Notes under the pieces: model-generated
What the model was told of the DNA's origin: nothing
Databases searched by the model: none
What the model saw: the letters and a program-made list of their open reading frames with translations, nothing else
Made by a program: the position numbers and the translations under genes
NCBI GenBank assembly: GCA_017507215.1
Contig: JAFWBI010000004.1
Span: 19,617 to 83,616, forward strand
Direction: 5' to 3'
Source: Clostridia bacterium
Lineage (GTDB): Bacteria; Bacillota; Clostridia; Christensenellales; UBA1242
DNA: 64,000 nucleotides
Shown here: positions 8,025-45,726 of the stretch, piece by piece
How positions within the stretch are numbered: the first letter of the stretch is position 1
Layout of the letters: each line of letters opens with the position of its first letter

Positions 8025-8303
8025 ATGTTCTAAAAGGTTATTTTTTTATTACAATTATTTTCTGAATGGGTATTGACTTTTTGGCTGATTTATAGTATTA
8101 TTATACTAACCATATGAGAATGTGGCAGATGGTTGATAGTTTTCTTTTGTGAAAAATTTTAAGAAAATGATTGACTATTTGATAATTATGTGGCTGGCGA
8201 AAGCATAAAATAATATGTGGAATTTTATTACAGATATTGATTTTGTGCTTGTGTTATGCTAAAATTCATTCGGAAATATAATAACAAAGGGAGAGAGTTA
8301 TTT

Positions 8304-11300: not shown

Positions 11301-11783
11301 GCACAAATTCAAGATTTAACAGAACAAATTGCTGAGATTGCTGAAGAACTTGAAGAAAAGAAAGATGCTTATAATAAACTTGTTGAAGAACTTGAAGCAG
11401 CAAAAGCAAGAATTGCAGAACTTGAAGCTGAAAAGAAAGCTCTTGAAGAAGACCTTAAGAACAACTATATTTCAAAAGCTGACTATGATGCAAAGGTTGC
11501 AGAACTTAATGCAGAAATTGAAGCAAATAAGGCACTTATTGCTGAAAATGCTGAACTTCAAAGACAACTTACAGAAGCTAGAGCTCAAATTGTTGCTCTT
11601 GAAGAACAACTTGCAGGTTCATCTGTTGAAGCAACAAATCTTGTGTTTGACATTTATGAATATATCACTGGAACAAAAACAAATGATATTGCAACTGCGA
11701 TGAAGGTTATTTCTGAACAACTCGGAATTACAACAGTTCCACCTTCACAAGATGCTGAATCAAATGTTAAACAACCATCTTAA
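8304..11783 (+). CDS. large membrane-spanning repeat plus coiled-coil protein
   Basis: ATG at 8304 with RBS AAAGGGAGAGAG (track ORF starts at 8256). About 300-aa N-terminal domain, one TM helix (TALAVTAGAAGMAALLVGGHFLGSAIY, about 9176-9255), about six 70-75-aa repeats, then about 310 aa of heptad-rich Ala/Glu/Leu/Lys coiled coil. Confidence 0.7.
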   Translation: MKKSAVINKIKEYHIIKKILNDAGIKKLPVDSKVAHFIAAFTAHVKYFGSIKIGAHETFDELFARLEGSYLSSDASHKKIDPEQAGYEHYIEDVLGATVLDSVGATLEQPENKEKMRAFTLEVGRKQTTTALVVANSVRDYAALAIVMEELARVSGSDASKQIQLERIAGLLDMSEKKNVTMEQIRAVAGHMEARIIAKIVAAAPKSDEDFIKGIAILTGRKVNEIKTLVQSQHGEILNAIGEIKTPITGMAVDLGTVKTDVAHIKGKVDAMASDIDEIKKNTAGLGKKKTALAVTAGAAGMAALLVGGHFLGSAIYNAVTPDKLTETELLTDYMSLVNVINGLQVDGISDAEKQNFVDVDLNAFVEKYKGTNLEAKSLECRDALLANINGTMEIGGQVGLITGYFQDTAALDATLNTLIQSNGALDANERDGFISGDVAAFTAKYAGTALETASKTDAAGFTAYANAAYELGASNYDAIKALADGYSIDVKSLIVELDRLTDDADGLTQADKDAFVGSASDPNAVSVYNFTQKYAGTAFESASQGQGTELSALAETLRILTQSGVDLSNVNADLIAYGNDVAKLNVDLSNLINDADGLTQAESDNFFANDVAAFTAKYAGTALEGASKNQETGLTSIATAALGHAQLSADNALLSEYHLDVQNLNTTLSGLISNDGVLDATELAAFIGSASDPNAISVYNFVEEYKGTSLEAASAAQAGGFTTTANSTYELGQTQQLMADYNSDLASLDSALYGYLADASYEAAEKTEFEGLVQDFLDKYASTTLKARSEIDADVMKTLSTRISEMSELKQQVISELATEKGKVADLNNQIVALRSENDTLAATNKDYADRITALEAQVKELSGKIDELMNKIANAPTDAQVQALLAQIGELEAQITDLNNQVSSLKGQVSTLTTENAELKAKNEELTTEVSNLKTENAGLKADLDAANATIDSLNQVVDILKTEKASLEEQLKNKDITIAEYEARIAELEAIETELRAQIQDLTEQIAEIAEELEEKKDAYNKLVEELEAAKARIAELEAEKKALEEDLKNNYISKADYDAKVAELNAEIEANKALIAENAELQRQLTEARAQIVALEEQLAGSSVEATNLVFDIYEYITGTKTNDIATAMKVISEQLGITTVPPSQDAESNVKQPS
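9280..10690 (+). repeat. intragenic tandem repeats (about six units of about 210-225 nt)
   Basis: Recurring peptide DADGLTQA(D/E)KD.F...(V/A)AAFTAKYAGTALE.ASK / SASDPNA(V/I)SVYNF..(K/E)Y(A/K)GT..E.AS. Near-identical DNA blocks, e.g. gatgttgcagcattcac(a/g)gcaaaatatgctggaacagc near 9613 and 10134, and ttggttcagcaagtgacccaaatgca near 9855 and 10366. Confidence 0.6.
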
Positions 11784-18900: not shown

Positions 18901-20274
18901 TTAAAACATGATTTTTTCGTTAACATAAGCGATGAGCTCATCAACAGAAACACGTTTTTGTTCCATTGAATCTCTGTCACGAATGGTGACGGTTCCGTCT
19001 TCCATTGTGTCGAAGTCGATGGTTGCGCAGAATGGAGTTCCGATTTGGTCTTGACGACGATATCTTTTTCCGATTGAACCAGCTTCGTCATATGTGCACA
19101 TAAAGTGTTTTGAAAGCTTTTTATAGATTTCTCTTGCTTTTTCTGAAAGGTTCTTTTGAAGTGGAAGAACTGCAACCTTATATGGTGCGATAGCAGGGTG
19201 GAATCTATAAACAACACGAGTGTCGCCACCTTCAAGAGTTTCTTCGTCATAGAATTCGCAAAGAACTGCGAGTGTGAGTCTGTCTGCACCGATTGAGTAT
19301 TCAACAACGTGTGGAATGTATTTTTCGTTTGTCACAGGGTCGATATAAAGCATGTTTTTGCCTGAATATTCTTGGTGACGAGAAAGGTCGTAGTCTGTTC
19401 TGTAGTGAATACCGTTGAGTTCGTTCCAACCGAATGGATATTTGAAGATGATGTCACAAGCGGCTTTTGCATAGTGTGCAAGTTTTTCGTGGTCTTTGTA
19501 GTTCAAATTTTCTTTGTCAAAACCAAGTTCGATTAAAAAGTCATAAGCGTCTTTTTTGTATTTTGCATAGAAGTCAAAACCAGATTCTTCGTTTTTGCAG
19601 AAAAGTTGATGTTCCATTTGTTCGAATTCGATTGTTCTGAATGTGAAGTTTCCTGGAGTGATTTCGTTTCTGAATGCTTTTCCGATTTGACCAATTCCGA
19701 ATGGAACTTTTGCACGAGTTGTTCTTTGAACGTTCATAAAGTTTACAAATTCACCTTGAGCTGTTTCAGGACGAAGGTAAATAACGTCGTCAGCACCACC
19801 AGTGATGTCTCTTGAAGTTTGGAACATTAAGTGGAATTGACGGATTGGTGTCCAGTTGAAATTTCCACAAACAGGGCAGTTAACATGATGTTCATTGATG
19901 TATGCTTCCATTTCTTCATTTGTCATGGCATCAGGGTTAACTTCGCCTTTAGAATATGTGTCGATAAGGTTGTCTGCTCTCATTCTTGCTTTGCAAGATT
20001 TGCAGTCCATTTTTGGGTCGGTGAATGATGCAACGTGGCCAGAAGCTTCCCAAACCTTTGGGTTCATTAAGATTGCTGCGTCAACACCATAGCTGTTGTC
20101 AGCTTCTTGCACGAATCTTTTCCACCAAACGCGTTTAATATTGTTTTTGAGTTCAACACCAACAGGACCATAGTCCCAAGTGTTTGCAAGTCCATCATAA
20201 ATGTCTGAACCAGGGTAAACAATACCAGTTTGTTTGCAGTGACTTACAAGTTTGTCCATTGTTAAATTTTTCAT
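18901..20274 (-). CDS. glyQS: glycine--tRNA ligase (alpha2 type)
   Basis: 457 aa: MDKLVSHCKQTGIVYPGSDIYDGLANTWDYGPVGVELKNNIK..., class II motifs (FRNEITPGNFTFRTIEFEQME), and a C-terminal anticodon-binding domain. Confidence 0.93.
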   Translation of the reverse strand: MKNLTMDKLVSHCKQTGIVYPGSDIYDGLANTWDYGPVGVELKNNIKRVWWKRFVQEADNSYGVDAAILMNPKVWEASGHVASFTDPKMDCKSCKARMRADNLIDTYSKGEVNPDAMTNEEMEAYINEHHVNCPVCGNFNWTPIRQFHLMFQTSRDITGGADDVIYLRPETAQGEFVNFMNVQRTTRAKVPFGIGQIGKAFRNEITPGNFTFRTIEFEQMEHQLFCKNEESGFDFYAKYKKDAYDFLIELGFDKENLNYKDHEKLAHYAKAACDIIFKYPFGWNELNGIHYRTDYDLSRHQEYSGKNMLYIDPVTNEKYIPHVVEYSIGADRLTLAVLCEFYDEETLEGGDTRVVYRFHPAIAPYKVAVLPLQKNLSEKAREIYKKLSKHFMCTYDEAGSIGKRYRRQDQIGTPFCATIDFDTMEDGTVTIRDRDSMEQKRVSVDELIAYVNEKIMF

Positions 20275-20282
20275 AATTTGTT

Positions 20283-20573
20283 CTCCTTTTTGGGTGTGTT
20301 ATTTTTTGTTTTAAGCTAAAACAAAATAAAAAGCCTAATCTTGCTCGTTTCCGATAGCAAAAGAGAATAATGATTTATTCAATTTTGCTAAGGGGCGAGA
20401 GATTAGACCCGTGGTTCCACCCTTATTAGTGTTTGAAATATGCTCAAACACTCACTTTTTTAACGGAATTGCTCCAAAGTGCCTTCGACTTGCGTTTGCT
20501 GTTCTTATTCCACCATCAAGAACTCTCTTATAGCAACCTTCAAGCTTACTATTCTTCTTCACTGCAATTTTAT
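20283..20573 (-). promoter_or_regulatory. T-box riboswitch leader (Gly specifier GGC)
   Basis: Read on the minus strand: AGAGAG K-turn region; specifier loop GUCGAAGGCACUUUGGAGCA with the GGC codon at 20481-20483; T-box core AAGGGUGGAACCACGGG (20408-20424); terminator GUCUAAUCUCUCG / CGAGCAAGAUUAGGC followed by UUUUUAUUUU (about 20322-20410). Confidence 0.85.
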
Positions 20574-32177: not shown

Positions 32178-35100
32178 TTAAACAAATCCATCATCTTTTT
32201 TAACGACTTCTTCAATTTCTACTTGTGTTTCTTCAGATTTATCATCATCAGATTTTTTCTTTTTGCGAGATTTTTTCTTAGATGTTGTTTCTGGAAGTGT
32301 AGAAATAAGGTCTTTTTCATGTTCGTTTTGTTCTTGTTTAACAACTTTGATAGGGTGTTTCTTGATGATTGTTGCAACAAGAGCAAGAATGATTACGATT
32401 CCAAGAAGAAGTGAAGAGAAGATGTAGAAGAATGTTGCCCAAGTTGCTGAGCCACTTGATGAATCATCAACAACTTCTGAATCAGTTGTTGAACCTTTGT
32501 TTTCAGTTGATTCAGTTCCGAAGTATGATTTGATTACTGTGTCGTTGCTTTCTTTGTCAACATCGTCATAGTTTAATGCGTATTCTTTAAATAATTTTTC
32601 AGTAGCAAAATTCTTAAGTTCCATTCCTGCGATGATTGCGTAACCTGAACCTGTTGATTTTTCAGTTCCAAGAGAGAATTTAACAGAGAATGAAGAAATT
32701 GCACTTGAGTTTGTTGAAATCAAAATTTGATAGCAAACAAATCCGTTTTCATCTCTAAGTTCATCATATTTTGAATCTGTGGTGTCAATGTTTGTCCATT
32801 TTCTTGAAATTGAGCTGTCAAGGTCAATGTTCAAACCAAAGTCATTTTCAGCAAATGAACTTGTTTTTACATAAACTTTAAGAACATAATAAGATGTTTT
32901 GCTGAGTGTTGTGCTGTAAACTGGGGTAGCAAGTGTGTAGTCTGTTTCAAAACTATTTGCTAAGATAAGCACGTTTTCAGAATAATCATTTTTAAGTTCA
33001 GCAGCATCAATAAACACATTATTGATGGTTACGTCATTTTTAAAGTTATATGTGTAGTTTGTTGTTTCTTTTTCAGTGATTGTGTAATCAGTTGGAGTTT
33101 CTGTTCCAACAGTTACTTTGGCTGTGCCATCAACAACAACTGCTTTACCGTCAAGTTTAGTAACTTCTTCGGTGTAGTTGCTATCACTATACATCTTATA
33201 AACAAGGTCATCAGAACCTTCAACTTCAACACCCTTGATGTAATATTCAACTTTGTTGATAGTTACTGTATAAGATTTTGTGATTGTTGATGTGTAGTAT
33301 GATGCAACAGCAACGCCAGTGTCACCGGTGGTGAATGTTGATGTGTTTTTAATGTTGCTTGTGAATTCTTTTGCATCATATGTGTTTGTTTCATCTTTGT
33401 CGTTGCCATGAATAGAGAATTCGAAGGCTTTAAGGTCGATGAATTTAACATTTTTGAAGCAATCTTTTTCAAAAATATCAGATTCAGTTGTGTCTTTGTT
33501 GTCTGAATCAGGAAGCATGTCATCTCTAATTTCGTCAAGGGTTTCAGTTGTTGTTACGCATGCAACGTTTCTGAAGAAACATGTTCCAGTTGCACTCTTG
33601 ATGCCAAATTTGATATAAACACTTGCAGTTGATGCATCTGATGCGATGTAGAATGTGTATTTATTCCAGCCGTTTGCAATATCATTAAAGTCAATGTCCA
33701 TTCTTGAAATTAAGTTTTCAGCTTTCACTGAGCTTGTGTAAACTTCAGCAAAGATATCACCATTAAAGTTTAATCCTTTATGGAATTCAAAACTTAATTT
33801 ATAAGTTGTTGAAGCAGAAAGACTGATTGATGATGAATATGTGCTGTAGGTTGATTTGTGAGCGTATGATGTCACTGAGTCTTTCCAAGTTGCACTATTT
33901 AATGGATTTTCAATAGTGGCTGGGGCATAGATTGCATAAATGTTATTCTTGAGAGAGTTTTCAGGAACTTCAACAAGAGTGGTTGCATCTGCGCTGTTAT
34001 ATTTTGCGAAGAAGTTGTCTTCAATAGCAAGATATTCATCAGATGTTGGAACAACACCAGCAATAACGCCAGTTGAAGTTTCAGCAATTGTCCAGTTTTC
34101 AGCTTTTCTAGGAGCAGTGTAGTCAATGTTTGAATTGTAGTTATCTGTTACTGTTACATTGTTGAAATAACCATTTGTTACACCAGCAGAAATGATTGAT
34201 TTGCTTGGTGTGAGTGACAAACAGAATGTTGTTTTGTCTGAGTCTGAGTTTGCTGTGTCGTAAGCACCACTTGTGATTTTTTCAATAGTGATGTTGTCAT
34301 AGTAAATGGTTGTGTCTTTATCAGCAGAAAGTGTTAAATAACATTTTTGGCTGTGAAGAGCGTTTCCTTCAATATAGAAACTTACAGGAATCCAACCATA
34401 TTCATTTGCTTGTGTTGTTGAGTAATCGCCAATGTAAGCGTTAACACTTGCAGATGAAGTGATTAATGTTCCGTGAGTTAAGGTTGTTGCAGTTTTCAAA
34501 ACTGAACTTAATGTTAAGTTTGCCTTAACATCTTCTTTTGTTGCAAGAACCCAAACTGTGAGTTTGTAATATTCATTTTGTTTAACAGTGAAGTAGTTTG
34601 AAATTAAACCAAGTGTAAGTTGTCTGCTTGAGTTTGTGAGTTTCAAAATCTTGTTGTTATCTTTGAATGTTGATTTAACAAATGCAACGTCTTCTTTTTC
34701 TGTTGAAGGTGCGTCGCTATCAATAGCGTCGTCATCGTCATCTTCATCTTCTTCTGGCAATTTATCTTCATAAATTGTGCTTTCATCAATGATTGATGCT
34801 GATAATTTTCCAGATTCATATGCTTTTTGATATTGTTCTAAGATGTAGTTATTTCCTTGTCCTGAAACGTCACGGCTGATATACATTTGCCATAATGCTT
34901 CAAGTTCTGAATAACCATCAATATTAGAAGCATTTGAGAAATCAAGAGAAGAGAAGTATGATTCTAAATTGTCTAAATTGAAGTTATCTTCGAAATATTT
35001 TGGATTTGCGTCAGGAGTCCAAGCTGAAATTGAATCATTAACATTTGTGTTTACGGCAGTTACAATAATTTTGTTGCCATATTTATCAACATATTCAGGT

Positions 35101-38100
35101 TCTGATTGAGAAACTGGTTCACCTGGTTCGGTTTCTTCTTCTGGAGCAGTTGTTTTTACAGTTTCGCCATCGATTGTGAGTTTATTGAAATCTGTAAGGT
35201 TGATTTTTGTAACTCTGATGTCATCAAATAACACAGTTCCGTTTGCTGTTGAATAAGTATCTTTCAAAACAGTTTTTGTGTTTGGAGCTGTTCCGATGGT
35301 GTAAGTTGCTTCAGCGTTGCCAACAAAGAATGTTTCTTTTTGTGAACCGAAGATGCTTGTTTTGTCACCCATAAACATTGTGAGCTTTACAGATGAAGCA
35401 GAAAGGGAATTTGTTGCAATATAAAGGTAATGCTTTTCCCATTTTCCGTTTGTTGAGATATGTTCAATATTTGCAGTTGTGATATAACCCTTGGTGTCTT
35501 CAACATAAATTGAAGCTTCAACAGGTTTATTGAAATCTGCAACGCTTTCAAGCTTGTGATTGTAAGTTCCATTTGTGTAAACATAGAATGAAATCACATA
35601 ATAGCTGTTTGAAGAAAGGGTGATTGTTGAGTTTGTTGAATAAGAGTATGTTGTGATGTTTGGTGTTTGAGTATACCAAGCAGCAGATTCAACATCTCTA
35701 ATTTTCTTATAGTAAAGATTTTTGCCTTCAACATAATCAGGATTTAATTCTTCGCTATTCTTGATTTTTGGAGTGATTAATTCATAGTCAGATGCAAGAT
35801 AATCATCACTTGTGTCTGTGAAAGTTTCATAAGCAGAATCTTTGCTTGTTGTGTTTTCATAGATAACTCTTTCAGTTTCGTTTGTAGCATTATATTTATA
35901 GTAAAGAGTGTATTTTAAGTTATAGAACTCATCATCAGATGTGAGTTGTGTGTAGAATTTGTGGTTTGCTTCATATTCTTTTGTTGTGATAACAATGAAG
36001 TTACGTCCACCATCTTTATAAGTTGATTTATCACTTGATGTAACTGAATCGTCAATAACGAAAAGGGCATTCTTGTCAGTGATTGTGTTCTTTACGTAAA
36101 TATCTTTAGCACTTGAATCATATTTATAGTAAAGTTTGAAGTTTTCGTTGTAGTTTGCATCTGATTTTTCAACGGTGATGTAATCTTTATAATTATAGAA
36201 ATTTGCAACACCATCAATTTGTTTGCTTGGGATAACGGTGTAGTTTAAATTTTTGTAAACTTCGTTATCTTTTTCATCTGCATATTTTGCAGCGTCAACC
36301 ACGATGTAAATCTTTTTGATTTTTTCTGTGAGTTCGTGGTGATAGTAATATGTGTATGAAGTATCTAAATCAAGCTTTTTAACTGTTGCTTCAGGAACTT
36401 TTACATATTCATTATATTTAGCTGCTTCAAGAGTAGATTGTGAAAGGTTTGCAATTCCGTCAACAGAATCTTTTCCTGTTGGAATATAAACATAGATTTT
36501 CTTATTGTTTCCGTCCATTTCATATTTTGTTGAAGCAACTTGAGTTTCTTCAAATGGAATGTTTGGAAGGGTCTTTGTTTCATATTCGCCAGCTTTATAT
36601 GTTACATTTGTTAATGTTTCATAGTTGGCTCTAATCTTTTTGAAATAAAGCTTATAGTCGGCTTTGTAATAGTTTGCGTATGAAGAGCTTTCAACAAGAT
36701 AATATTCTTCAAGTTCGTCTTCAGACATATTTGCAAAGTCTGCTGTTTTTACATAATCTTTATATTGATATGTTGGGTATTTTGTTTCGAATGAAGATTT
36801 GTCTTCTGTTTGAATGTAAACATGTTTGTTTTCTGCTTCTTTATATTTCAAATAGAGTGTGCTATTTCCACTTGCATCAGTAAATTGTTTGATGATGTTT
36901 TTGAATCTTGTGATGTTGCCAGTGTCGGTTGTGGTTGATTCATTTTCACTTGTTGGGGAAATGCCAAGAACTTTAATGAAATATTGGTCATGAATACCAA
37001 GTGTGTAGCTTGTTTCGGTTGAAGTTCCGTTTGGAACAGGAAGGTTTACATATGTTGAATCAATATCATTTTTGTCTGTGATTACGTCAAGATACATAAA
37101 GTCATATGTTGCTTGTTCATCAGCAGTGATTCCGTTTGTGTCTAAAACAAAAACTTGATAGTTTCCATCTGCAAGGGTTTGATATGGAATAGCTTCATAT
37201 TTATAGTAAGTGATATATTGTTCCATGTAATCAGCACCATCAGCTGGAGTGATTAATCTATAAAGAAGTGGATATTTTTCCAAGTTTTGTTTAATTGAAC
37301 CATCGTTATCAAAAACCACACGTTTGTCAACGTCGATGCCTTTGCCACGAGCGTTGTCAATGAATGTTTGAGAAGCATCTTTTGCACTTAAATAATAAAT
37401 ATTTGGTTTTGTGTTTCCGGTTGCAATTACGTATTTTTCAGTTGTTTTGTTTGTTGATTCAAATGTGTTGTCTTTGTAGTAATAACTCATTGAACCAGGA
37501 GCTTTGTTTGCCAAAATACCTGCAACGTTTTTGTTTTGAGTTTCGCCATCATATGTGTAGATTGCTACTGTTTTTGCAATTTCATTATCAATTTCGGTTT
37601 TTACACGATTGTAAGAATGGCTTTGTTCATAGAACTTTGTTTGATCGCTGATGCCATCTCTAATGGTTGTTCCTGTTGGTTCGCCAGCGTCGTTTAAAAC
37701 ATCTTCGACTTTGATTGATGATTCGTCACGTTCATCAGGTGAAATGAAGTTTGCTAATGAATGATAGAATTGAATTTTATATTCGTTGCTGTTTTCAGTG
37801 AATATGAAGTTGTTGATAGGAGAGAATGTCATTTGAGTTCCTTCATTCACACCTATAGTTTGTTTTCTGTAAGTGATTTCATGAGAAACGAAATATTCAA
37901 GGTATTCTCTAAATGTTTCACATTTTTCATTATTCTTAATGTTTGTTGCTTCAGCAGTGTAGTACTCAAGGAGAGTGTCATATTTGCCATCGGTTGCTGC
38001 CAAGAATTCAGTGTAAACTGTTTTATAAGCAACATCGGTTTCAACATTTGTGCTTGTGTCTTTGAGTTTAACAGTTTCATCGATTGACTTTAAATATTCA

Positions 38101-38411
38101 TCAGCATATTTAGCAAACAAGTCACTAAATCTAGTGTTGTAATATTTTTCAATGTTGAAGTTGTTGCTGCTACCTTCAAAATATGATTTTAGTGATGAAG
38201 GGTAGTTTCCTGCACTGATGTTAGTTTCGCTTGTTGTGCTTGAGTTTGGATAATAAGTTTGCACAGAAGACGACTTGTAAGCATTAGTTTTGAAAGTATC
38301 CACCAATAAAGCAAGCGGTGAATAGTTAAAAGACAATGTTAAAACAAGTGCTAACATCAAACTAAAAATTGACTTTTTTCTTTTGTTAAAAAACTTTTTT
38401 AAATTGTTCAT
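32178..38411 (-). CDS. giant (about 2077 aa) membrane-anchored surface protein with four jelly-roll/CBM-like modules
   Basis: Signal-like N-terminus (KKSIFSLMLALVLTLSFNYSPLALL). The Tyr/Lys/Asn-rich N-terminal half has recurrent ..(K/T)LY(Y/F)K(K/Y).. motifs. Acidic linker (EEDEDDDDDAIDSD, about 34725-34770). C-terminal TM helix (FFYIFSSLLLGIVIILALVATII) followed by a Lys/Asp-rich tail. No LPXTG motif. Confidence 0.75.
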   Translation of the reverse strand: MNNLKKFFNKRKKSIFSLMLALVLTLSFNYSPLALLVDTFKTNAYKSSSVQTYYPNSSTTSETNISAGNYPSSLKSYFEGSSNNFNIEKYYNTRFSDLFAKYADEYLKSIDETVKLKDTSTNVETDVAYKTVYTEFLAATDGKYDTLLEYYTAEATNIKNNEKCETFREYLEYFVSHEITYRKQTIGVNEGTQMTFSPINNFIFTENSNEYKIQFYHSLANFISPDERDESSIKVEDVLNDAGEPTGTTIRDGISDQTKFYEQSHSYNRVKTEIDNEIAKTVAIYTYDGETQNKNVAGILANKAPGSMSYYYKDNTFESTNKTTEKYVIATGNTKPNIYYLSAKDASQTFIDNARGKGIDVDKRVVFDNDGSIKQNLEKYPLLYRLITPADGADYMEQYITYYKYEAIPYQTLADGNYQVFVLDTNGITADEQATYDFMYLDVITDKNDIDSTYVNLPVPNGTSTETSYTLGIHDQYFIKVLGISPTSENESTTTDTGNITRFKNIIKQFTDASGNSTLYLKYKEAENKHVYIQTEDKSSFETKYPTYQYKDYVKTADFANMSEDELEEYYLVESSSYANYYKADYKLYFKKIRANYETLTNVTYKAGEYETKTLPNIPFEETQVASTKYEMDGNNKKIYVYIPTGKDSVDGIANLSQSTLEAAKYNEYVKVPEATVKKLDLDTSYTYYYHHELTEKIKKIYIVVDAAKYADEKDNEVYKNLNYTVIPSKQIDGVANFYNYKDYITVEKSDANYNENFKLYYKYDSSAKDIYVKNTITDKNALFVIDDSVTSSDKSTYKDGGRNFIVITTKEYEANHKFYTQLTSDDEFYNLKYTLYYKYNATNETERVIYENTTSKDSAYETFTDTSDDYLASDYELITPKIKNSEELNPDYVEGKNLYYKKIRDVESAAWYTQTPNITTYSYSTNSTITLSSNSYYVISFYVYTNGTYNHKLESVADFNKPVEASIYVEDTKGYITTANIEHISTNGKWEKHYLYIATNSLSASSVKLTMFMGDKTSIFGSQKETFFVGNAEATYTIGTAPNTKTVLKDTYSTANGTVLFDDIRVTKINLTDFNKLTIDGETVKTTAPEEETEPGEPVSQSEPEYVDKYGNKIIVTAVNTNVNDSISAWTPDANPKYFEDNFNLDNLESYFSSLDFSNASNIDGYSELEALWQMYISRDVSGQGNNYILEQYQKAYESGKLSASIIDESTIYEDKLPEEDEDDDDDAIDSDAPSTEKEDVAFVKSTFKDNNKILKLTNSSRQLTLGLISNYFTVKQNEYYKLTVWVLATKEDVKANLTLSSVLKTATTLTHGTLITSSASVNAYIGDYSTTQANEYGWIPVSFYIEGNALHSQKCYLTLSADKDTTIYYDNITIEKITSGAYDTANSDSDKTTFCLSLTPSKSIISAGVTNGYFNNVTVTDNYNSNIDYTAPRKAENWTIAETSTGVIAGVVPTSDEYLAIEDNFFAKYNSADATTLVEVPENSLKNNIYAIYAPATIENPLNSATWKDSVTSYAHKSTYSTYSSSISLSASTTYKLSFEFHKGLNFNGDIFAEVYTSSVKAENLISRMDIDFNDIANGWNKYTFYIASDASTASVYIKFGIKSATGTCFFRNVACVTTTETLDEIRDDMLPDSDNKDTTESDIFEKDCFKNVKFIDLKAFEFSIHGNDKDETNTYDAKEFTSNIKNTSTFTTGDTGVAVASYYTSTITKSYTVTINKVEYYIKGVEVEGSDDLVYKMYSDSNYTEEVTKLDGKAVVVDGTAKVTVGTETPTDYTITEKETTNYTYNFKNDVTINNVFIDAAELKNDYSENVLILANSFETDYTLATPVYSTTLSKTSYYVLKVYVKTSSFAENDFGLNIDLDSSISRKWTNIDTTDSKYDELRDENGFVCYQILISTNSSAISSFSVKFSLGTEKSTGSGYAIIAGMELKNFATEKLFKEYALNYDDVDKESNDTVIKSYFGTESTENKGSTTDSEVVDDSSSGSATWATFFYIFSSLLLGIVIILALVATIIKKHPIKVVKQEQNEHEKDLISTLPETTSKKKSRKKKKSDDDKSEETQVEIEEVVKKDDGFV

Positions 38412-38599
38412 TATATACCGTCCCATATTTAATAAAATTAACTGAACTAATTTTAGTATATTTGCGCCGAAAAATCAACCATTTATATTAATTTTTATGC
38501 TTTATAGTCAACATATTTAAATTATTTATAGGCTAGCTAAAATTTGTCATAATAATCACTTATAATTATTGCCGAATTTTAAAATACTAATTATGAGAT

Positions 38600-38974
38600 A
38601 TGGAAAATAAAAATAAATTTTTTGATATTTTGAAACTTGTTGGAGTGGGAGTTGTGTCGGGAATTATAAATGGCTTTTTTGGAGCAGGTGGTGGGCTTCT
38701 TTTGGTTCCATTAATTTCATTTGTTCAAAAAGACAATTCAAAGAAAGCTCATGCCACAACTCTTGTGTGTGTTATGTTTATGTGCATAGCAAGTTCAGTG
38801 ATTTATTTTTTGAAAAAGCAAATAGATTATAAATTGGTTTTGGTTTGTGGAATTGGAAGTTTGATTGGGAGTTTGGTTGGAACAAAACTTTTGAAAAATT
38901 TAAAAAATAACATCATTGATTTAGTGTTTTCTGGAGTGTTAATTTTGGCAGGTGTGTGCATGATTATATTTTAG
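38600..38974 (+). CDS. half-size TauE/SafE (TSUP) family membrane protein
   Basis: 124 aa, 4 TM helices. VGVVSGIINGFFGAGGGLLLVPL is the typical TSUP opening. Confidence 0.6.
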   Translation: MENKNKFFDILKLVGVGVVSGIINGFFGAGGGLLLVPLISFVQKDNSKKAHATTLVCVMFMCIASSVIYFLKKQIDYKLVLVCGIGSLIGSLVGTKLLKNLKNNIIDLVFSGVLILAGVCMIIF

Positions 38975-39041: not shown

Positions 39042-39446
39042 TTGCAAATTTTATTACTTTTGGCTGTGTCGTGTTTTTCTGGAATTTTTGCCGGAATGGG
39101 AATGGGTGGTGGAACATTTTTGATTCCACTTTTAAGTTTGTTTTTTGGAATTGAGCAAATAATTTGTCAATCAACAAACGTTTTGTGTTTTGTTCTTTTG
39201 GCTATTATTTGTTCGGTGATTTATGCAAAGAATAAATTGATAGATTATAAGGTTGTTTTATGTGTGATTTTTCCGGCAACGGCCATCGCAACGCTTGCCA
39301 GTATTTTTGCTGTGAAGACAAGCTCTGATGTGCTTCAAATTTGTTTTTCAATTTTTATTATTTTAGTTGGTGCTTTTTATTTTATTAAGACGATTGCTGC
39401 CATGAAGAAAGATAAAAAACTGCTTGTAAAAAAGAACCCTAACTAA
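39042..39446 (+). CDS. half-size TauE/SafE (TSUP) family membrane protein
   Basis: 134 aa, 4 TM helices. FSGIFAGMGMGGGTFLIPLL. TTG start 6 nt after AGGAG. Confidence 0.6.
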   Translation: MQILLLLAVSCFSGIFAGMGMGGGTFLIPLLSLFFGIEQIICQSTNVLCFVLLAIICSVIYAKNKLIDYKVVLCVIFPATAIATLASIFAVKTSSDVLQICFSIFIILVGAFYFIKTIAAMKKDKKLLVKKNPN

Positions 39447-39527: not shown

Positions 39528-40841
39528 GTGAAATTAGTTAATTTTAAAGGTATTCATCCGTTTACAAAAAAATTATCCGTTGGTATTGATGTGACACCAC
39601 TCAGACCAATGGAGTTTTATAATGTTCCATTGAAAGTAAAAAACATTGCTGAATCTGAACCAGCTGTTCAAATTGGCGATGAAGTTAAGCAAGGAACTTT
39701 GATTGCAAAACCATCTGGAAATTTTGGCATCAACATTTACTCTCCGGTTAGTGGAAAGGTGTTAAATATCTTCAGCAAAGTTACACTCAGTGGCGAATAT
39801 GCTAAGCATATTCTCATTATGAATGACAACAAAAATGAAGTTCAAGATTTGCCAGAAATTGATTCTGTTAGTGATGTCACACTCATCAGCAGGCTTCGTG
39901 AAGCTGGCATGGTTGACACAATTTCTGGTATGCCAACATATTTGAAATATGCTTATGTTGGTGGCAGAGCTTATCGAACACTCATTATTTTGATGGACAG
40001 CACTGACTTGAATAGTTCAACAAATCAAACACTTGCTGAATATAAGACAGAAGAAGTTATAAACGGTGCTAAATATTTCATGAATATTACCAGTGCACCA
40101 CATATAATTTTTGTTTTTACTGAAGCAAATAGAAAGCTTGCTGCGAAAGTCAAAAAACATATTTTAGACACTAAAAAGAACTACGATTTTAAAATTAAAT
40201 TTATTCCAAATAAATATCCTTTTGATGACCCATACATTTTGACTAGTCTTGTTTGTGGAAAGTCAATCAAGAAAGGCAACTCATTCCTTGAAGCTGGCAT
40301 CACCATTGAAAATGCTGAGTCATGTTATAATTTCTGCCGTGCAGTTGAATTTAATAAACCGGTTACTGGAAAGATTGTGACCATTGATGGAAACAATGCT
40401 ATTAGAAAAGGTAACTATTTTGTTCAAAATGGTGTTTCGATTGAAAACATTTATGACTTTATTGGAATTGACGATAAAGAAACTTCTTCAATTTTGATTG
40501 AAGGAAATGTTATGGCTGGAACGGCTCAATATAACAAAGATATCTCTGTTTCACTCACAACAGATTCTTTGATTTTGCAAAAATTTGACGAATATGATGC
40601 ACCAAAAGAATATCCTTGCATTTCTTGTGGAAAGTGTGCAAGTGTTTGTCCTGTGTTTTTGAATCCGAAAAATATTGATAACGCTTATTTGAATGAGCGA
40701 TTTGATGAAATTCCAAAACTCAACACCCACGCATGTATTGAATGTGGTTGTTGTTCATATGTTTGTCCAGCAAGGCGTTTCTTAACTCAAAGAATTGCCG
40801 CTGCAAAACATTATGATAAAACAAGTAGGGGGGCGAAATAA
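39528..40841 (+). CDS. RnfC-like subunit (Fe-S motifs kept, NADH/FMN motifs degenerate)
   Basis: N-terminal RnfC barrel-sandwich pattern (AKPSGNFGINIYSPVSGKV). C-terminal CISCGKCASVCP and CIECGCCSYVCPARR. The GxGGAGFPT and NGAECEP blocks are not recognisable. Confidence 0.7.
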   Translation: MKLVNFKGIHPFTKKLSVGIDVTPLRPMEFYNVPLKVKNIAESEPAVQIGDEVKQGTLIAKPSGNFGINIYSPVSGKVLNIFSKVTLSGEYAKHILIMNDNKNEVQDLPEIDSVSDVTLISRLREAGMVDTISGMPTYLKYAYVGGRAYRTLIILMDSTDLNSSTNQTLAEYKTEEVINGAKYFMNITSAPHIIFVFTEANRKLAAKVKKHILDTKKNYDFKIKFIPNKYPFDDPYILTSLVCGKSIKKGNSFLEAGITIENAESCYNFCRAVEFNKPVTGKIVTIDGNNAIRKGNYFVQNGVSIENIYDFIGIDDKETSSILIEGNVMAGTAQYNKDISVSLTTDSLILQKFDEYDAPKEYPCISCGKCASVCPVFLNPKNIDNAYLNERFDEIPKLNTHACIECGCCSYVCPARRFLTQRIAAAKHYDKTSRGAK

Positions 40842-41770
40842 TGGAAAGATTTGTTGTAATGAATTCGCCATTTGTTCATAGTGGCAACGATGTAAATAAA
40901 ATGTTTATCTATATGGCAGTTGCGCTTACGATTCCTGCAGTTTATGGCATTATCTTTTTTGGAATTCAAGCAGCGTTTGTGATTTTGCTTTCACTTGCGA
41001 CTTGTTTGCTTTCAGAAATGCTTTTCAACCTTGTCACAAAAAAGAAATTTAAAGTTGATAATTTTTCATTTTTTGTTACAGGTATGATATTGGCGCTCAC
41101 ACTTCCAGTTGAAGTTCCGTTCTATGTTGTTATTGGTTCTGGTTTCTTCTCAATCTTTGTTGTTAAACAAGTTTTTGGAGGTCTTGGATTCAATAAGTTT
41201 AATCCGGCGCTTTGTGGAAGATGTTTGGCTGGTGTGATTGTTCCAGCTCTTGCAAGTGAGCTTTATGAGTTTACTCTTAATGAAGAGACATACACATCAC
41301 TTGCTTGTGGTGGTGAAAATTCAATCACTAACTTGCTTTCAGGTCAGGCAGTTGGTGGAATTGGAACAACCTGCATTGTTTTGATTTTTGTCTGTGCATT
41401 CATTTTGGCATACACAAAAGTCATTGATGTTAAAATTCCTATTATTGCTGTGCTTTCATATTTTGTTGTTGGCACAATTTCTGTTGGATATGAAAATGCT
41501 ATAATGAACATGTTTTCTGGTTCATTCGTTTTCATTTGTGTATTTATGCTTACAGACCCTAACACATCACCAGACACATTCTTAGGTAAGATTTTATATG
41601 CGATTCTTTTCGGTGTGCTTTCTGCACTTGTTTGGAATAACGGAAGCTTGGGAGAAAACAGTTTGTTTGCTGTGGCACTTGCTGTTAATATTGTTGCTCC
41701 TATTTTCGATAAATACTTAGAGATTAAACCAGTGGCAAGAGGGGGATATAGAAATGCATATAAAAAGTAA
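40841..41770 (+). CDS. RnfD/NqrB-like membrane subunit
   Basis: SPFVHSGNDVNKMF, GGLGFNKFNPAL, MLTDPNTSPDT. ATAATG overlap with the upstream gene. Confidence 0.75.
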   Translation: MERFVVMNSPFVHSGNDVNKMFIYMAVALTIPAVYGIIFFGIQAAFVILLSLATCLLSEMLFNLVTKKKFKVDNFSFFVTGMILALTLPVEVPFYVVIGSGFFSIFVVKQVFGGLGFNKFNPALCGRCLAGVIVPALASELYEFTLNEETYTSLACGGENSITNLLSGQAVGGIGTTCIVLIFVCAFILAYTKVIDVKIPIIAVLSYFVVGTISVGYENAIMNMFSGSFVFICVFMLTDPNTSPDTFLGKILYAILFGVLSALVWNNGSLGENSLFAVALAVNIVAPIFDKYLEIKPVARGGYRNAYKK

Positions 41771-42653
41771 TATTGAGCATATTGTTATCGACGTTATTAT
41801 AGTTGCTATATGTCCTTTGGTGCTTATCATGAATGATGCAAAAACTGCGTTATATTATGTGGCAGCAACAGCAATTTGTTTGCTTGTTTCAGCTATTTTG
41901 TGTTTGATGCTTAACAAATATTTAAGCAAAATAATGAAGGTTTTTATAACGACTGTTTTGTCGTCATTCTTGATAACTGTATTTAACTATGTTATCAAAG
42001 AATATGGATTTTTGGGGCTTGAAGCAACCGATAAAAACTACTATGCCATTCTTTCGACAATCGTTTTGAGTATTGATATATATTACATTGAAATCAAAGC
42101 GGCTGTTAACCATTATTTTGCAAGAGTTTTAAACTCAATATTTGTGTTTGCGTTAATTACAATGATTTACATTGTTATTAAAGAATTCTTGAGTGTTGGA
42201 ACGATTTTTGAATGGAAACCATTTAAATATTCTGGATTTGAATTTTTCAATACTTACACATTCAGCTTTATTCTATTAGCCATGCTTGCAGCATTTAGTT
42301 CAATGACATTTAGAGCCATTAATAAGCATTTGCAAGAAAAATCAATGGCATATGCTAAGCTTTTAAAACAAATCAAAAATGAAAGAATTTTCCAATATGA
42401 TTCACTTAGACGTCAAAAACTTTTAACTTCTGAAGTTGAAATTAAATATGTTGATGGCGATGAATATGAAGAGATAAAAGATAAAGATAACAAAAACGAA
42501 TCTCTTGCTGACCTTGTTTCTGATGAAGATGGTGAAGAAAAAGAACGTCACACTGAAGGAACAATCAAGAAGAGAAAATCTAAACTTAAAGTTTCGAAAG
42601 AAGCTAAAGTTCAACACATGTTTGAAAGAAGTACTAAAGGGGGTAAAAAATAA
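41754..42653 (+). CDS. divergent RnfE/NqrD-like membrane subunit with a charged C-terminal tail
   Basis: About 6 TM helices. VAICPLVLIMNDAKTALYYVAATAICLLVS resembles the LGLCPxLAVT block. The last 100 aa or so are Lys/Glu-rich. RBS GAGGGGG. Overlaps the rnfD-like gene by 17 nt. Confidence 0.5.
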   Translation: MHIKSNIEHIVIDVIIVAICPLVLIMNDAKTALYYVAATAICLLVSAILCLMLNKYLSKIMKVFITTVLSSFLITVFNYVIKEYGFLGLEATDKNYYAILSTIVLSIDIYYIEIKAAVNHYFARVLNSIFVFALITMIYIVIKEFLSVGTIFEWKPFKYSGFEFFNTYTFSFILLAMLAAFSSMTFRAINKHLQEKSMAYAKLLKQIKNERIFQYDSLRRQKLLTSEVEIKYVDGDEYEEIKDKDNKNESLADLVSDEDGEEKERHTEGTIKKRKSKLKVSKEAKVQHMFERSTKGGKK

Positions 42654-43231
42654 TGTTTGAATCATTTTTATCATACCTTGCGTTATATGGTGCTCAGTCA
42701 AATATATTTGTTTATAATGGTGCTGGAACACTTCAAGTTCAACGTGAAAAAATGTATAGGTCATATAGATATATCAATGCGTTGTTTTTGGTGCTCGGCA
42801 TTATTGTTACATCATTGATTTCATATGTGCTTTACAATTATGTTTATAGCAAATTTGATATGTTTGATATTGGCATTAGCGTCAATGTGTTTATTGTTGC
42901 ATTTTTCCATTTGATAATTTCATTCATTTGGCAAAAAATGTCTTACTTCAAATTCTATTTGTATGAAAACGCTTTTGCTTATGGTTTTGACGTTGCATAC
43001 ACACTTTCAGTTATTTTCACACTTGACATGACTGTTGTCTTTGTGGATTTCATTTGGGCAATTCTTGCAATCTCGATTGTTGTTTTAATTATGAACGTTC
43101 TTATGGGATTCTATATAAAGAGCATCAATAGGGGTTATATGAATGTTAACTTCAGAAACGTTTCGGCTAGAGTTTTCTTATTTGCTATATTTTCAATTTT
43201 ATTATATTACGCAGGAATACTTGTTGGATAA
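42653..43231 (+). CDS. divergent RnfA/NqrE-like membrane subunit (Cys-free)
   Basis: 192 aa, about 6 TM helices. The call rests on position in the operon and weak N-terminal similarity (SNIFVYNGAGTLQV). Contains no cysteine. Confidence 0.4.
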   Translation: MFESFLSYLALYGAQSNIFVYNGAGTLQVQREKMYRSYRYINALFLVLGIIVTSLISYVLYNYVYSKFDMFDIGISVNVFIVAFFHLIISFIWQKMSYFKFYLYENAFAYGFDVAYTLSVIFTLDMTVVFVDFIWAILAISIVVLIMNVLMGFYIKSINRGYMNVNFRNVSARVFLFAIFSILLYYAGILVG

Positions 43232-43240
43232 GGAGAACGT

Positions 43241-44023
43241 ATGTTAAAAATTGTTGTTTATGTGGCATCTGTTTTGATTTTACTTGCTGTTATTATAACG
43301 GTTGTTGTCATCACGAGCAAAAATAAAAGATTAGGCAAAATGCCAGAACTTGTTTATGAACTTTTGCCTAACTTAGATTGCAAGCAGTGTGGAAGAAATA
43401 ACTGTATGCAGTTTGCAGAAGATTTGACAAAGGGAAAGACAGCTCCAAGCAAATGTCCATATTTGAAAGGAAGCAAATATTTAAGGCTTAGACAAGTTTT
43501 AAAAAGAGAAAGAAAAGTTCACTTTGACACAGTTGCATTTGTTCGATGCAAGGGTGGTGTTGACTGCAACAATAAGTTTAAATATATTGGTGACAACACA
43601 TGTTCAAGCATGAACTTGCTTCATAGTGGCGACAAATTTTGCCCTAATGCTTGTCTTGGTTGTGGCGATTGCATTCAATCATGTATTTATGGAGCGATAT
43701 CAATTTCTGAAAAGGGTTGTGCTATCGTTGATAAAGATAAGTGTGTTGGTTGTGGAGAATGCGTTTACGCTTGTCCAAACCATATCATTGATTTGATTCC
43801 AAGCAAAAAATTTGTTGAAGTTGTTTGCAGCAACACTCAAGATGATTCTGTTGTTGTCAGAAATTGTAAAGTGGCTTGCACACACTGTGAAGCCTGCGTT
43901 GTGGCTTGTCCTGTGGGGGCAATTAAAATGGTTGGTGGTGCACCAAAAATTGATTCAGAACTTTGTGTTAAGTGTGGAAAATGCGTTGCTGCTTGTCCAG
44001 AACACGTTATTTCTAGAATCTAG
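43241..44023 (+). CDS. rnfB: RnfB-like polyferredoxin subunit
   Basis: N-terminal TM helix, the Fe-S domain LPNLDCKQCGRNNCMQFAEDLTKGKTAPSKCPYL, then four CxxCxxCxxxCP-type motifs. Confidence 0.75.
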   Translation: MLKIVVYVASVLILLAVIITVVVITSKNKRLGKMPELVYELLPNLDCKQCGRNNCMQFAEDLTKGKTAPSKCPYLKGSKYLRLRQVLKRERKVHFDTVAFVRCKGGVDCNNKFKYIGDNTCSSMNLLHSGDKFCPNACLGCGDCIQSCIYGAISISEKGCAIVDKDKCVGCGECVYACPNHIIDLIPSKKFVEVVCSNTQDDSVVVRNCKVACTHCEACVVACPVGAIKMVGGAPKIDSELCVKCGKCVAACPEHVISRI

Positions 44024-44177: not shown

Positions 44178-45698
44178 GTGGATAAAATTGCTGTTGTAGT
44201 TGTTGAAACGTATTCTGCAAAATTAGTAATTGCGAATGTAGTTCAAGATAATTATTTTTCTATTTGTGACGTTGAAGTTGAACCAATCAAATTTGGGTTG
44301 GAGATGGATGATGACCATTTCTTGAAAAAGAATCAAATCATGTCTATCATCAGCACGCTCAAAAACTTTAGAAAGATTTGTGATATGTTTGCTGTTACAA
44401 AAACTATTGCTATTGCAAGTTTTGTTAAAGATACAAAACCAATGAATATTTATAGCTTCTTTGATGAAGTGTTTGTTACATGTGGATTTAGGTTTTCAAT
44501 GCTTACTCCAGAAGAACAAAACACAGCGATTTACACAGGCATTATGAATAGCTATGATATTCCAAAGGGATTCATTGTTAACATTGGTGCTGACAATATT
44601 CATTTAATTCAATATAATAGAAGAAATATTTTAAACCAAGCATATATTCCAGTTGGTCCTAAAACATTAATTGAAATGTATCCACTTGAAAAGCATGATA
44701 AAACTGAAGTTTTTGAAAAAGTGAAGAAGTATATTAAATCGCAACTTTCAGATTTTGAATGGATAAAAACCATTGAGCCAGAATATGTTTTTGTTGGAAA
44801 CGGAACATATTTTGAAGATTTGTCTAGAATGGATAGAATTTACACAAAGTATCCACTTGACAAAGATGATGGTTACCAATTAAAGTCTGCTGACATTTCA
44901 TATATCTTAAATCAACTTAAAGCACTTGAGCTTAATGAAAACAAGAGATTAAAACACTTGAACGAGCCAAGAGCAGACGTGTTTGCATATGCTGTTGAAA
45001 TTATGCAAGCAATTTCTGAAGAAGTTGAAAGAGAAAATATCACAATCACAACAAGGTCACTTGTTGAAGGTTTGTTGTTCAATTCTGTAACGCCAACTAC
45101 ACTTGAAAAACCAAATTCTGATATTGTTGGTTTCTCAGTTATGGCACAAACTGCTGAATATGAAGCTGATGCAACAAAGCACAATGAACAAGTTTATAAT
45201 TTGTCAATGCTTTTGTTTAAACAACTCAGAGTTTTGCATAAACTTCCAAGGGGATATGTTAAAGTTTTGAGAGTTGCGTCATATATGCACGACGTAGGAA
45301 AGAGAATCAGTTATAAAAACCACGCTCAACATTCATTTGAAGTTGTGCTTAATAGTGAAATTTATGGTCTTACACACAGAGAATTGATTCTTGCTAGTTT
45401 TGTGGCTTCACTTCACTCTGGCGGTGATTTGAAAATGGCTGACTGGGCTAAATATAATGGAATCTTAACTGTTGATGATATTGATGCAACCAAGAAACTT
45501 GGTATCATCTTAAGACTTGCAGAGTGTTTTGATAGAACTAAAAACAACCTTATTATTGATATCAACTGCGATATTTTGGGTGATTCAGTTATTATGAAAA
45601 CTGTTACAACTGCTGATGCTACTTTTGAGATTCAAAGGGGCATGGAAATTGGAAGAGATTTTGAAAAAATCTTCCATAAGAAATTAGAAATATTATAA
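44178..45698 (+). CDS. Ppx/GppA-family protein with a C-terminal HD domain
   Basis: GTG start after AGGAG. ASKHA-like N-terminal half (VVVETYSAKLVI, IVNIGADNIHLIQY). HD region RVASYMHDVGKRISYKNHAQHS. Confidence 0.6.
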   Translation: MDKIAVVVVETYSAKLVIANVVQDNYFSICDVEVEPIKFGLEMDDDHFLKKNQIMSIISTLKNFRKICDMFAVTKTIAIASFVKDTKPMNIYSFFDEVFVTCGFRFSMLTPEEQNTAIYTGIMNSYDIPKGFIVNIGADNIHLIQYNRRNILNQAYIPVGPKTLIEMYPLEKHDKTEVFEKVKKYIKSQLSDFEWIKTIEPEYVFVGNGTYFEDLSRMDRIYTKYPLDKDDGYQLKSADISYILNQLKALELNENKRLKHLNEPRADVFAYAVEIMQAISEEVERENITITTRSLVEGLLFNSVTPTTLEKPNSDIVGFSVMAQTAEYEADATKHNEQVYNLSMLLFKQLRVLHKLPRGYVKVLRVASYMHDVGKRISYKNHAQHSFEVVLNSEIYGLTHRELILASFVASLHSGGDLKMADWAKYNGILTVDDIDATKKLGIILRLAECFDRTKNNLIIDINCDILGDSVIMKTVTTADATFEIQRGMEIGRDFEKIFHKKLEIL

Positions 45699-45726
45699 AA
45701 AGAAGCCATTTGGCTTCTTTTTTTGT
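45697..45726 (+). terminator. intrinsic terminator
   Basis: AAGAAGCC-attt-GGCTTCTT followed by a T-run. Confidence 0.6.

Follow-up and report, generated by a model that had tools for sequence, protein, structure and literature searches.

A G-less Rnf-type gene cluster of uncultured gut Clostridia and the apparent loss of its transmembrane electron loop

Does an Rnf-like cluster of five genes in an uncultured Clostridia bacterium still encode a ferredoxin:NAD+ (nicotinamide adenine dinucleotide) oxidoreductase, or has the complex been turned to another use? The cluster lies in a 64,000-nucleotide stretch of contig JAFWBI010000004.1 (positions 19,617 to 83,616 of the forward strand; assembly GCA_017507215.1), called the window below. 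A sequence-only reading of this DNA had described five coupled open reading frames (ORFs) in the order C-D-E-A-B, and their coordinates and junctions are exactly as it gave them (Table 1). The closest relative is the canonical clostridial Rnf complex (rnfCDGEAB; structures 7ZC6 and 9ERI), a Na+/H+-translocating ferredoxin:NAD+ oxidoreductase. Electrons pass in Rnf from ferredoxin to RnfB, the RnfA/E iron centre, the flavin mononucleotide (FMN) of RnfG, the FMN and riboflavin of RnfD, the iron-sulfur (Fe-S) clusters of RnfC, the FMN of RnfC and finally NAD+ (PMC9588780; PMC12174285).

In the window this path is broken at four places: the RnfA/E centre, RnfG, the flavin motif of RnfD and the FMN/NAD site of RnfC. 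Ferredoxin:NAD+ oxidoreduction and redox-driven ion pumping are therefore impossible in the canonical way, and, as far as motifs can tell, canonical ferredoxin:NAD+ pumping by this cluster is excluded. The five genes are very probably a lineage-wide derivative of clostridial rnfCDGEAB that is devoid of the transmembrane electron loop and has kept the scaffold together with the cytoplasmic Fe-S subunits.

Retained and missing elements of the five subunits

The cluster has in common with canonical Rnf the gene order C-D-(G)-E-A-B, the five subunit folds, an RnfB polyferredoxin, the two [4Fe-4S] sites of RnfC, the NPAL and TDPxTSP blocks of RnfD and the (K/R)ExxGxG block of RnfE. Unlike canonical Rnf, it has no RnfG, no RnfC FMN loop or NAD(H) motif and no G-A dipeptide in RnfD, where Ser also replaces Thr; three of the four Cys of the iron centre are missing, and in one clade RnfE carries a charged tail. 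The NCBIfam thresholds for Rnf subunits, too, are missed by all five proteins. The RnfC-like protein scores 241.5 bits against TIGR01945 (cutoff 245.95), the RnfD-like protein 146.3 (207) and the RnfE-like protein 12.5 (213.4); RnfB scores 65.2 against TIGR01944 (68.7) and 142 against NF005503 (252), and the RnfA-like protein has no match.

The RnfC-like protein aligns end to end with RnfC of C. tetanomorphum (7zc6_C, E = 8e-46). Its AlphaFold2 (AF2) model (predicted local distance difference test, pLDDT, 74) has RnfC chains as best Foldseek matches (9eri_C, E = 2e-34, TM-score 0.77), followed by NqrA (TM-score 0.52-0.58) and then by NuoF-type proteins. Both [4Fe-4S] sites are kept, C364/367/370/374 and C403/406/409/413 being invariant. 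The FMN loop, GIVGMGGATFPT in canonical RnfC, reads GMVDTISGMPT in the window protein, and the NAD(H) motif, canonically NAAECEPY, reads LMDSTDLN (family consensus LMDSTDPN). The FMN loop (GxGGAxFPT) and the NAD(H) motif (NxAECEPY) are lost in all ten RnfC-like sequences compared, with partial intermediates of the NAD(H) motif in deeper sub-lineages (INCTEDDPY, ISCIDNDPY). The replacement sequences are themselves conserved in the family (VDTISxMPxYLKY and LMDSTDPNNS). As the alignments show, the FMN/NAD(H) pocket has been rebuilt, at the level of sequence, as a new, conserved stretch rich in Asp, Ser and Thr, which agrees with the earlier claim that both nucleotide-binding motifs were replaced and both 4Fe-4S motifs kept.

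Public annotation names the RnfC-like protein '4Fe-4S dicluster domain-containing protein' and the product of gene 4 'hypothetical protein'. In one deeper sub-lineage the RnfC-like protein (L029:6892-8397, with relatives P0191-P0207) has about 500 residues and carries an acidic C-terminal extension of about 60 residues with no detectable domain. In some contigs the second TauE half (see below) and the RnfC-like gene are joined in one 591-residue read-through call (P0025). This TauE-RnfC fusion was set aside as Rosetta-stone evidence, its linker resembling a translated intergenic region.

RnfB is, by its sequence, an intact polyferredoxin of the clostridial type. It matches RnfB of A. woodii (9eri_B) and of C. 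tetanomorphum (7zc6_B) (E about 2e-35), and its Cys motifs all line up with theirs; it comprises one transmembrane helix (residues 4-22), an FeS domain (PF04060; CxxCx4-5Cx16-17C) and four Fer4 stretches. The C. tetanomorphum RnfB holds five to six [4Fe-4S] clusters (PMC9588780). The sequence-only reading had likewise called the window protein a normal polyferredoxin, and all of its Cys align with those of the solved RnfB chains.

In the C. tetanomorphum complex FMN is esterified to RnfD Thr153 and RnfG Thr164, and RnfC carries a non-covalent FMN and two [4Fe-4S] clusters (PMC9588780). The RnfD-like protein of the window (PF03116, 226 bits; 7zc6_D, E = 2e-37) keeps the GGLGxNxFNPAL (NPAL) and TDPNTSP blocks. 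The flavinylation motif recognized by ApbE is D-x-x-[S/T]-G-A-[S/T], and ApbE can use Ser (PMC12052999). Neither the window protein (N-E-E-T-Y-T-S) nor the family (N-G-E-E-Y-I-S) has this motif: the G-A dipeptide is replaced in all RnfD-like sequences by Y-T, Y-I, V-S, I-S or M-V. Furthermore, in the GxIGE(T)S block, which lies near the RnfD FMN of C. tetanomorphum, Thr replaces Glu. Where canonical RnfD has its flavinylated Thr, all sub-lineages have an invariant Ser (Ser153 in the window, part of 'SPL/SPI' in the deeper ones). Judged by its motif, the subunit is unlikely to carry a flavin; it may still do so, because the acceptor position is an invariant Ser and ApbE can use Ser. The earlier statement that NPAL and TDPxTSP are kept and the flavinylation motif is not thus stands, whereas the loss of the flavin was put too strongly in view of Ser153.

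RnfG is missing, as had been claimed: there is no gene between the RnfD-like gene and gene 3, which overlap by 17 nucleotides. No FMN_bind or ApbE domain was found by Pfam in the 50 window ORFs scanned, a scan that left a few short ORFs and a protein of 2082 residues outside it, and the gene tables of six related loci (L026, L029, L031, L033, L035 and L036) show none either. With the most divergent RnfC-like protein as query, no lineage emerged in which a degenerate RnfC-like protein coexists with rnfG: G is missing from every degenerate sub-lineage, and the next matches are ordinary RnfC proteins from other phyla.

Gene 3 alone is a marginal member of its family (PF02508, 23.5 bits; cutoff 23.8). 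A profile of 16 orthologues matches RnfE (7zc6_E, E = 3.8e-12), NqrD (5.7e-10) and other RnfE and RnfA chains, and the protein retains the KEFLxxG motif. Its C-terminal tail of 114 residues, which follows a conserved amphipathic helix (FQYDxLRRQKLL), is Lys/Glu-rich and 45% charged. In deeper sub-lineages the RnfE-like protein has 207-238 residues and no charged tail, which is therefore an addition in the clade of the window. The Lys/Glu-rich tail of about 100 residues noted earlier is thus present, and is peculiar to one clade and not general.

Gene 4 is much harder to place. Neither its sequence nor a profile of its close family matches anything in Pfam, NCBIfam or the PDB, and hhalign found nothing when gene 4 profiles were compared with single E. 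coli RsxA and RsxE sequences or when the gene 3 profile was compared with that of gene 4. When 1.84 billion representatives were searched exhaustively with a profile, just 25 relatives came up, four of them distant full-length proteins of 190-191 residues. Once the profile was broadened with distant relatives, its PDB matches were three RnfA chains only, the best being 9eri_A (E = 1.4e-4), to which it aligns over the full length (residues 5-184 against 3-183). The top 13 Foldseek matches of the AF2 model (pLDDT 73) are all RnfA, RnfE, NqrD or NqrE (probability 0.57-1.0, TM-score 0.40-0.57), and a joint alignment with E. coli RsxA reveals common NNxV, SxK, (R)ExL and FRG/N blocks. On the broadened profile and the predicted fold we take gene 4 to be an RnfA that has diverged greatly, and it is by these two routes only that its earlier designation as RnfA-like can be upheld. 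Profile matches, with Foldseek for gene 4, place gene 3 with RnfE and gene 4 with RnfA.

In the C. tetanomorphum structure, RnfA Cys25 and Cys113 and RnfE Cys26 and Cys109 hold the intramembrane iron centre (PMC9588780). Gene 4 encodes no Cys: the first canonical position is Gly25, a near-invariant Gly, and the second has lost its Cys in all sequences, the non-Cys residue that replaces it varying between sub-lineages. Gene 3 has the first canonical Cys (Cys20), which is retained in most lineages, and reads S-T at the second position; sub-lineage L029 shows the reverse pattern, with only the second RnfE-like Cys. Cys42 and Cys50 in transmembrane helix 2 of gene 3 are semi-conserved and absent from the canonical RnfE sequences in the alignment. 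Three of the four canonical Cys are therefore gone in the window. No sub-lineage keeps more than one, and the survivor differs between sub-lineages, which is the pattern expected once a metal site has been lost. An RnfA-like protein without Cys and an RnfE-like protein with only the first one, its NC position reading ST, had been noted before, and the alignments bear this out. Profile and structure-guided alignments recovered no GGAGFPT/ECEP or SGATPL motif and no paired Cys at shifted positions.

Distribution and selection

The cluster is not peculiar to one genome. More than 120 cluster representatives are close to the RnfC-like protein (at least 59% identity), and all of them come from metagenomes or from metagenome-assembled genomes (MAGs) named 'Clostridia bacterium'. 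When genomes were scanned at one per species, 20 species-level MAGs turned out to carry the cluster; they come from the guts of humans, goats, roe deer and other hosts. All 20 share the neighbourhood by tblastn: genes for a MurJ-like protein, a GNAT protein, a giant surface protein on the opposite strand, two TauE proteins, C-D-E-A-B and Ppx, with MreB further downstream. Four deeper sub-lineages (L026, L029, L035 and L036; 33-38% identity in the RnfC-like protein) have TauE-TauE-C-D-E-A-B-Ppx with the same losses, so that the CDEAB arrangement recurs well beyond the window. Counting independent genomes or contigs, at least 24 have the gene set and its substitutions with ORFs intact, all of them from uncultured Clostridia, and chance does not account for such a pattern.

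The ratio of non-synonymous to synonymous substitution rates (dN/dS) against one close relative (dS 0.6-0.8) is 0.019 for C, 0.041 for B, 0.059 for D, 0.063 for A and 0.077 for E, which makes the RnfC-like gene and rnfB the most constrained of the five. Ratios of 0.019-0.077 indicate that the cluster is functional and under purifying selection rather than decaying.

No description of a G-less rnfCDEAB cluster, or of an Rnf-like/TauE variant, was found in the literature searched. A paper on a termite endosymbiont (PMC10579323) deals with a different family and contains no rnf genes.

Possible functions and comparison with known systems

Motif losses, homology and dN/dS together support the earlier suggestion of an Rnf scaffold repurposed away from NAD-linked electron transfer. 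We favour a model in which the complex, anchored in the membrane, would relay electrons from ferredoxin through Fe-S clusters on the cytoplasmic side. RnfB would accept electrons from reduced ferredoxin and pass them directly to the clusters of RnfC, once the B-C gap of about 25 Å had been closed; at its remodelled pocket RnfC would hand them to an acceptor, small molecule or protein, that is not NAD+, and the D/E/A core would act as the scaffold. In canonical Rnf, segment 91-140 of RnfB contacts RnfC, and the shortest distance between cofactors of the two subunits is 25 Å (PMC9588780). Since the subunits already touch, a modest rearrangement could connect them.

A functional analogy for an acceptor other than NAD+ is RsxABCDGE of E. 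coli (SoxR-reducing), an Rnf-type complex annotated as passing electrons to a protein Fe-S target and not as conserving energy. Rsx differs in having all six subunits, and the sequences compared retain the FMN and NAD motifs of RsxC, SQATPLD in RsxD and, in RsxA and RsxE, the Cys motifs. As a mechanism the relay is tentative and rather doubtful; description and relay taken together as one statement have somewhat less than an even chance of being right.

The Na+-translocating NADH:quinone oxidoreductase (Na+-NQR; NqrABCDEF) offers a precedent for an RnfC homologue without cofactors, NqrA (PMC12174285). In that enzyme, however, the RnfG homologue NqrC is present, as are the Cys4 centre of NqrD/E and a covalent FMN on NqrB, and NqrF stands in place of RnfB. 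The window cluster, by comparison, has RnfB and an RnfC-like protein with both Fe-S clusters, which fits RnfC better than NqrA (TM-score 0.77 against 0.58). No NqrF or NqrC homologue was found, and the input subunit is RnfB. Cofactor-less NqrA is reported to be highly variable (PMC4014512), whereas the RnfC-like gene is the most constrained of the cluster; the subunit is therefore unlikely to be merely structural.

Reduced NQR/RNF-like systems are known from Actinobacteria and the Candidate Phyla Radiation (Meheust et al. 2021, PMC8238504), and in these, too, a full semicircular electron loop is impossible. They keep the flavinylated half, as an RnfD-NqrF fusion with an extracytosolic FMN-binding protein and ApbE (PMC8238504), whereas the window cluster retains the Fe-S half and none of the flavinylated parts: its RnfD-like protein of 309 residues has PF03116 only, with no PF00175, and no ApbE or FMN_bind gene lies nearby. 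The survey that described the partial systems (PMC8238504) was anchored on flavinylation genes and would have missed the cluster studied here.

PrdC, associated with proline reductase, is an RnfC paralogue that works outside Rnf (TIGR04481, 97 bits); locus L021 is an example. PrdC retains GMGGAGFPT and NAAECEP in L021, is a soluble protein that partners proline reductase and is not encoded with D/E/A/B. Two loci from the genome scan, L021 and L022, were rejected as relatives of the cluster, L021 being PrdC beside proline reductase genes.

Several points weigh against the Fe-S relay. Its acceptor is hypothetical, direct transfer from B to C needs a structural rearrangement, and Fe-S clusters can persist for structural reasons alone. 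The invariant Ser and the strongly conserved core of the RnfD-like protein suggest that a cofactor may still be bound there, a point that a role as mere scaffold leaves unexplained, and the two TSUP half-permeases, whose pairing with the cluster is conserved, hint at a role related to transport. Moreover, the scan for rnfG and apbE covered window ORFs, and unlinked copies or a second canonical rnf operon are possible.

The hint of transport leads to an alternative without redox chemistry, in which the cofactor-free D/E/A core has become a channel or transporter for ions or solutes, perhaps acting with the TSUP halves, and B and C are structural or serve as ferredoxin-redox sensors that gate it. 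RnfD/NqrB is structurally related to ammonium and urea transporters, and RnfA/E resembles alternating-access symporters (PMC12174285). Purifying selection on D, E and A despite the lost cofactors fits this alternative, as do the linkage of the TauE halves on the same strand in every sub-lineage and the absence of a terminator within the block. The linkage is weak evidence, however, because the whole chromosomal region is syntenic in the lineage, and the strongest constraint falls on C and B, in which each Fe-S Cys is invariant, a better fit to a redox role. We regard such a transporter as unlikely. The invariant RnfD Ser could instead point to a one-way transmembrane conduit that reuses half of the Rnf loop, with electrons running from the Fe-S clusters of C, fed by B or by ferredoxin, through a flavin on or near Ser153 to an extracellular acceptor. 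ApbE can use Ser (PMC12052999), and RnfD-based partial NQR/RNF-like systems for unidirectional flow are known (PMC8238504). With the G-A dipeptide replaced by bulky or beta-branched residues, Thr in place of the Glu of GxIGE(T)S, and no ApbE or FMN-binding partner in the scanned window ORFs or the listings of related loci, however, this conduit is improbable.

Two further alternatives deny that the complex has changed its function. The cluster might still be a working ferredoxin:NAD+ Rnf, with RnfG and ApbE encoded elsewhere and cofactors held on non-canonical residues; the folds and the order of the five subunits are still those of Rnf, the two missing genes could lie outside the scanned window, and gene 3 has the two extra semi-conserved Cys in its second transmembrane helix. 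This is nonetheless very improbable given that RnfC has lost both its FMN phosphate loop and its acidic NAD(H) motif in every sub-lineage, that the E/A pair has at most one canonical Cys, which is not the same one throughout, and that all five proteins fall short of NCBIfam Rnf cutoffs. That the cluster is instead a functionless rnf remnant in decay, or that genes 3 and 4 are unrelated membrane proteins, is scarcely credible. Both genes do fail the standard family models, but their ORFs are intact across the 24 or more genomes or contigs, and their dN/dS is 0.06-0.08. The profile matches to RnfE and RnfA and the uniform Foldseek list for gene 4 argue against misassignment, as does a full-length alignment with E. 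coli RsxA and RsxE that has NNxV, K/RExxG and FRG/N blocks in common.

The cluster amounts to a natural dissection of Rnf, revealing which parts persist without the electron loop, and it points to an unrecognised ferredoxin-linked function in abundant uncultured Clostridia of gut and rumen. To our knowledge, Rnf and Nqr are regarded as a single conserved machine, whose six subunits, flavins and intramembrane iron centre are considered strictly conserved and are the basis of every proposed pumping mechanism. Specialists should therefore find the losses seen here surprising. Metabolic reconstructions that score Rnf as present from RnfB, RnfC or RnfD matches would wrongly credit such organisms with ferredoxin:NAD+ energy conservation. 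More speculatively, and in our view with only a small likelihood of being correct, the D/E/A core without flavins and iron centre may be an ion or solute conduit gated by the redox state of ferredoxin, possibly with the split TSUP permease, or the platform of a ferredoxin-dependent reductase with a new substrate in the RnfC pocket. Either would be the first Rnf/Nqr-family complex to work without any flavin and without a transmembrane electron loop.

Locus layout and other features of the window

Two half-size TauE/SafE permease genes lie directly 5' of the Rnf-like genes, on the same strand, in every sub-lineage examined. The halves are separate genes in swapped order, the C-terminal half preceding the N-terminal half, and the C-terminal-half gene is probably the first of the transcription unit. 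No terminator was found inside the block from TauE to Ppx, nor between rnfB and the Ppx/GppA gene; the sole strong terminator-like hairpin of the block is the one in Table 1. A promoter scan was uninformative in this AT-rich DNA (46 sites, 36 expected). The Ppx/GppA phosphatase is 79-95% identical across species, as against 59-88% for the RnfC-like protein of the same species.

Table 1. Positions of the Rnf-like genes, their neighbours and other features of the window
Feature	Position	Strand	Size	Remarks
RnfC-like gene	39528..40841	+	437 aa	
RnfD-like gene	40841..41770	+	309 aa	1-nt overlap with RnfC-like gene (base 40841)
Gene 3, RnfE/NqrD-like	41754..42653	+	299 aa	17-nt overlap with RnfD-like gene
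Gene 4, divergent RnfA-like	42653..43231	+	192 aa	1-nt overlap with gene 3 (base 42653)
RnfB gene	43241..44023	+	260 aa	9-nt gap after gene 4
Half-size TauE/SafE (TSUP) permease, C-terminal-half type	38600..38974	+		Pfam profile positions 127-237
Half-size TauE/SafE (TSUP) permease, N-terminal-half type	39042..39446	+		Pfam positions 2-113; 81 nt 5' of RnfC-like gene
Ppx/GppA-family phosphatase	44178..45698	+		Conserved neighbour directly 3' of rnfB
Intrinsic-terminator-like hairpin	45697..45722	no strand	11-bp stem	Bidirectional
Large protein	32178-38426	-	2082 aa	N-terminal hydrophobic segment, C-terminal transmembrane helix, Lys/Glu-rich tail
GGGtGRT-family protein	4816-5811	-		PF14057, 633 bits
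Weak NifU_N-like protein	5815-6507	-		Adjoins the GGGtGRT-family gene
Coiled-coil protein	8256-11783	+	1175 aa	
Class II aminoacyl-tRNA synthetase	18901-20274	-		
T-box leader	20388-20571	-		Rfam RF00230, 102.6 bits
aa, amino acids; nt, nucleotides; bp, base pairs.

The 2082-residue protein is always present and is oriented divergently from the TauE/Rnf-like block. At 33-57% identity it evolves far faster than its neighbours, and its homologue in L031 has no Pfam domain recorded.

Elsewhere in the window, a gene of the GGGtGRT family adjoins one for a weakly NifU_N-like protein, and the gene for a class II aminoacyl-tRNA synthetase is preceded by a T-box leader. The C-terminal third of the 1175-residue protein matches only coiled-coil families, of which there are many, and this protein may be a cytoskeletal or division-related filament protein.

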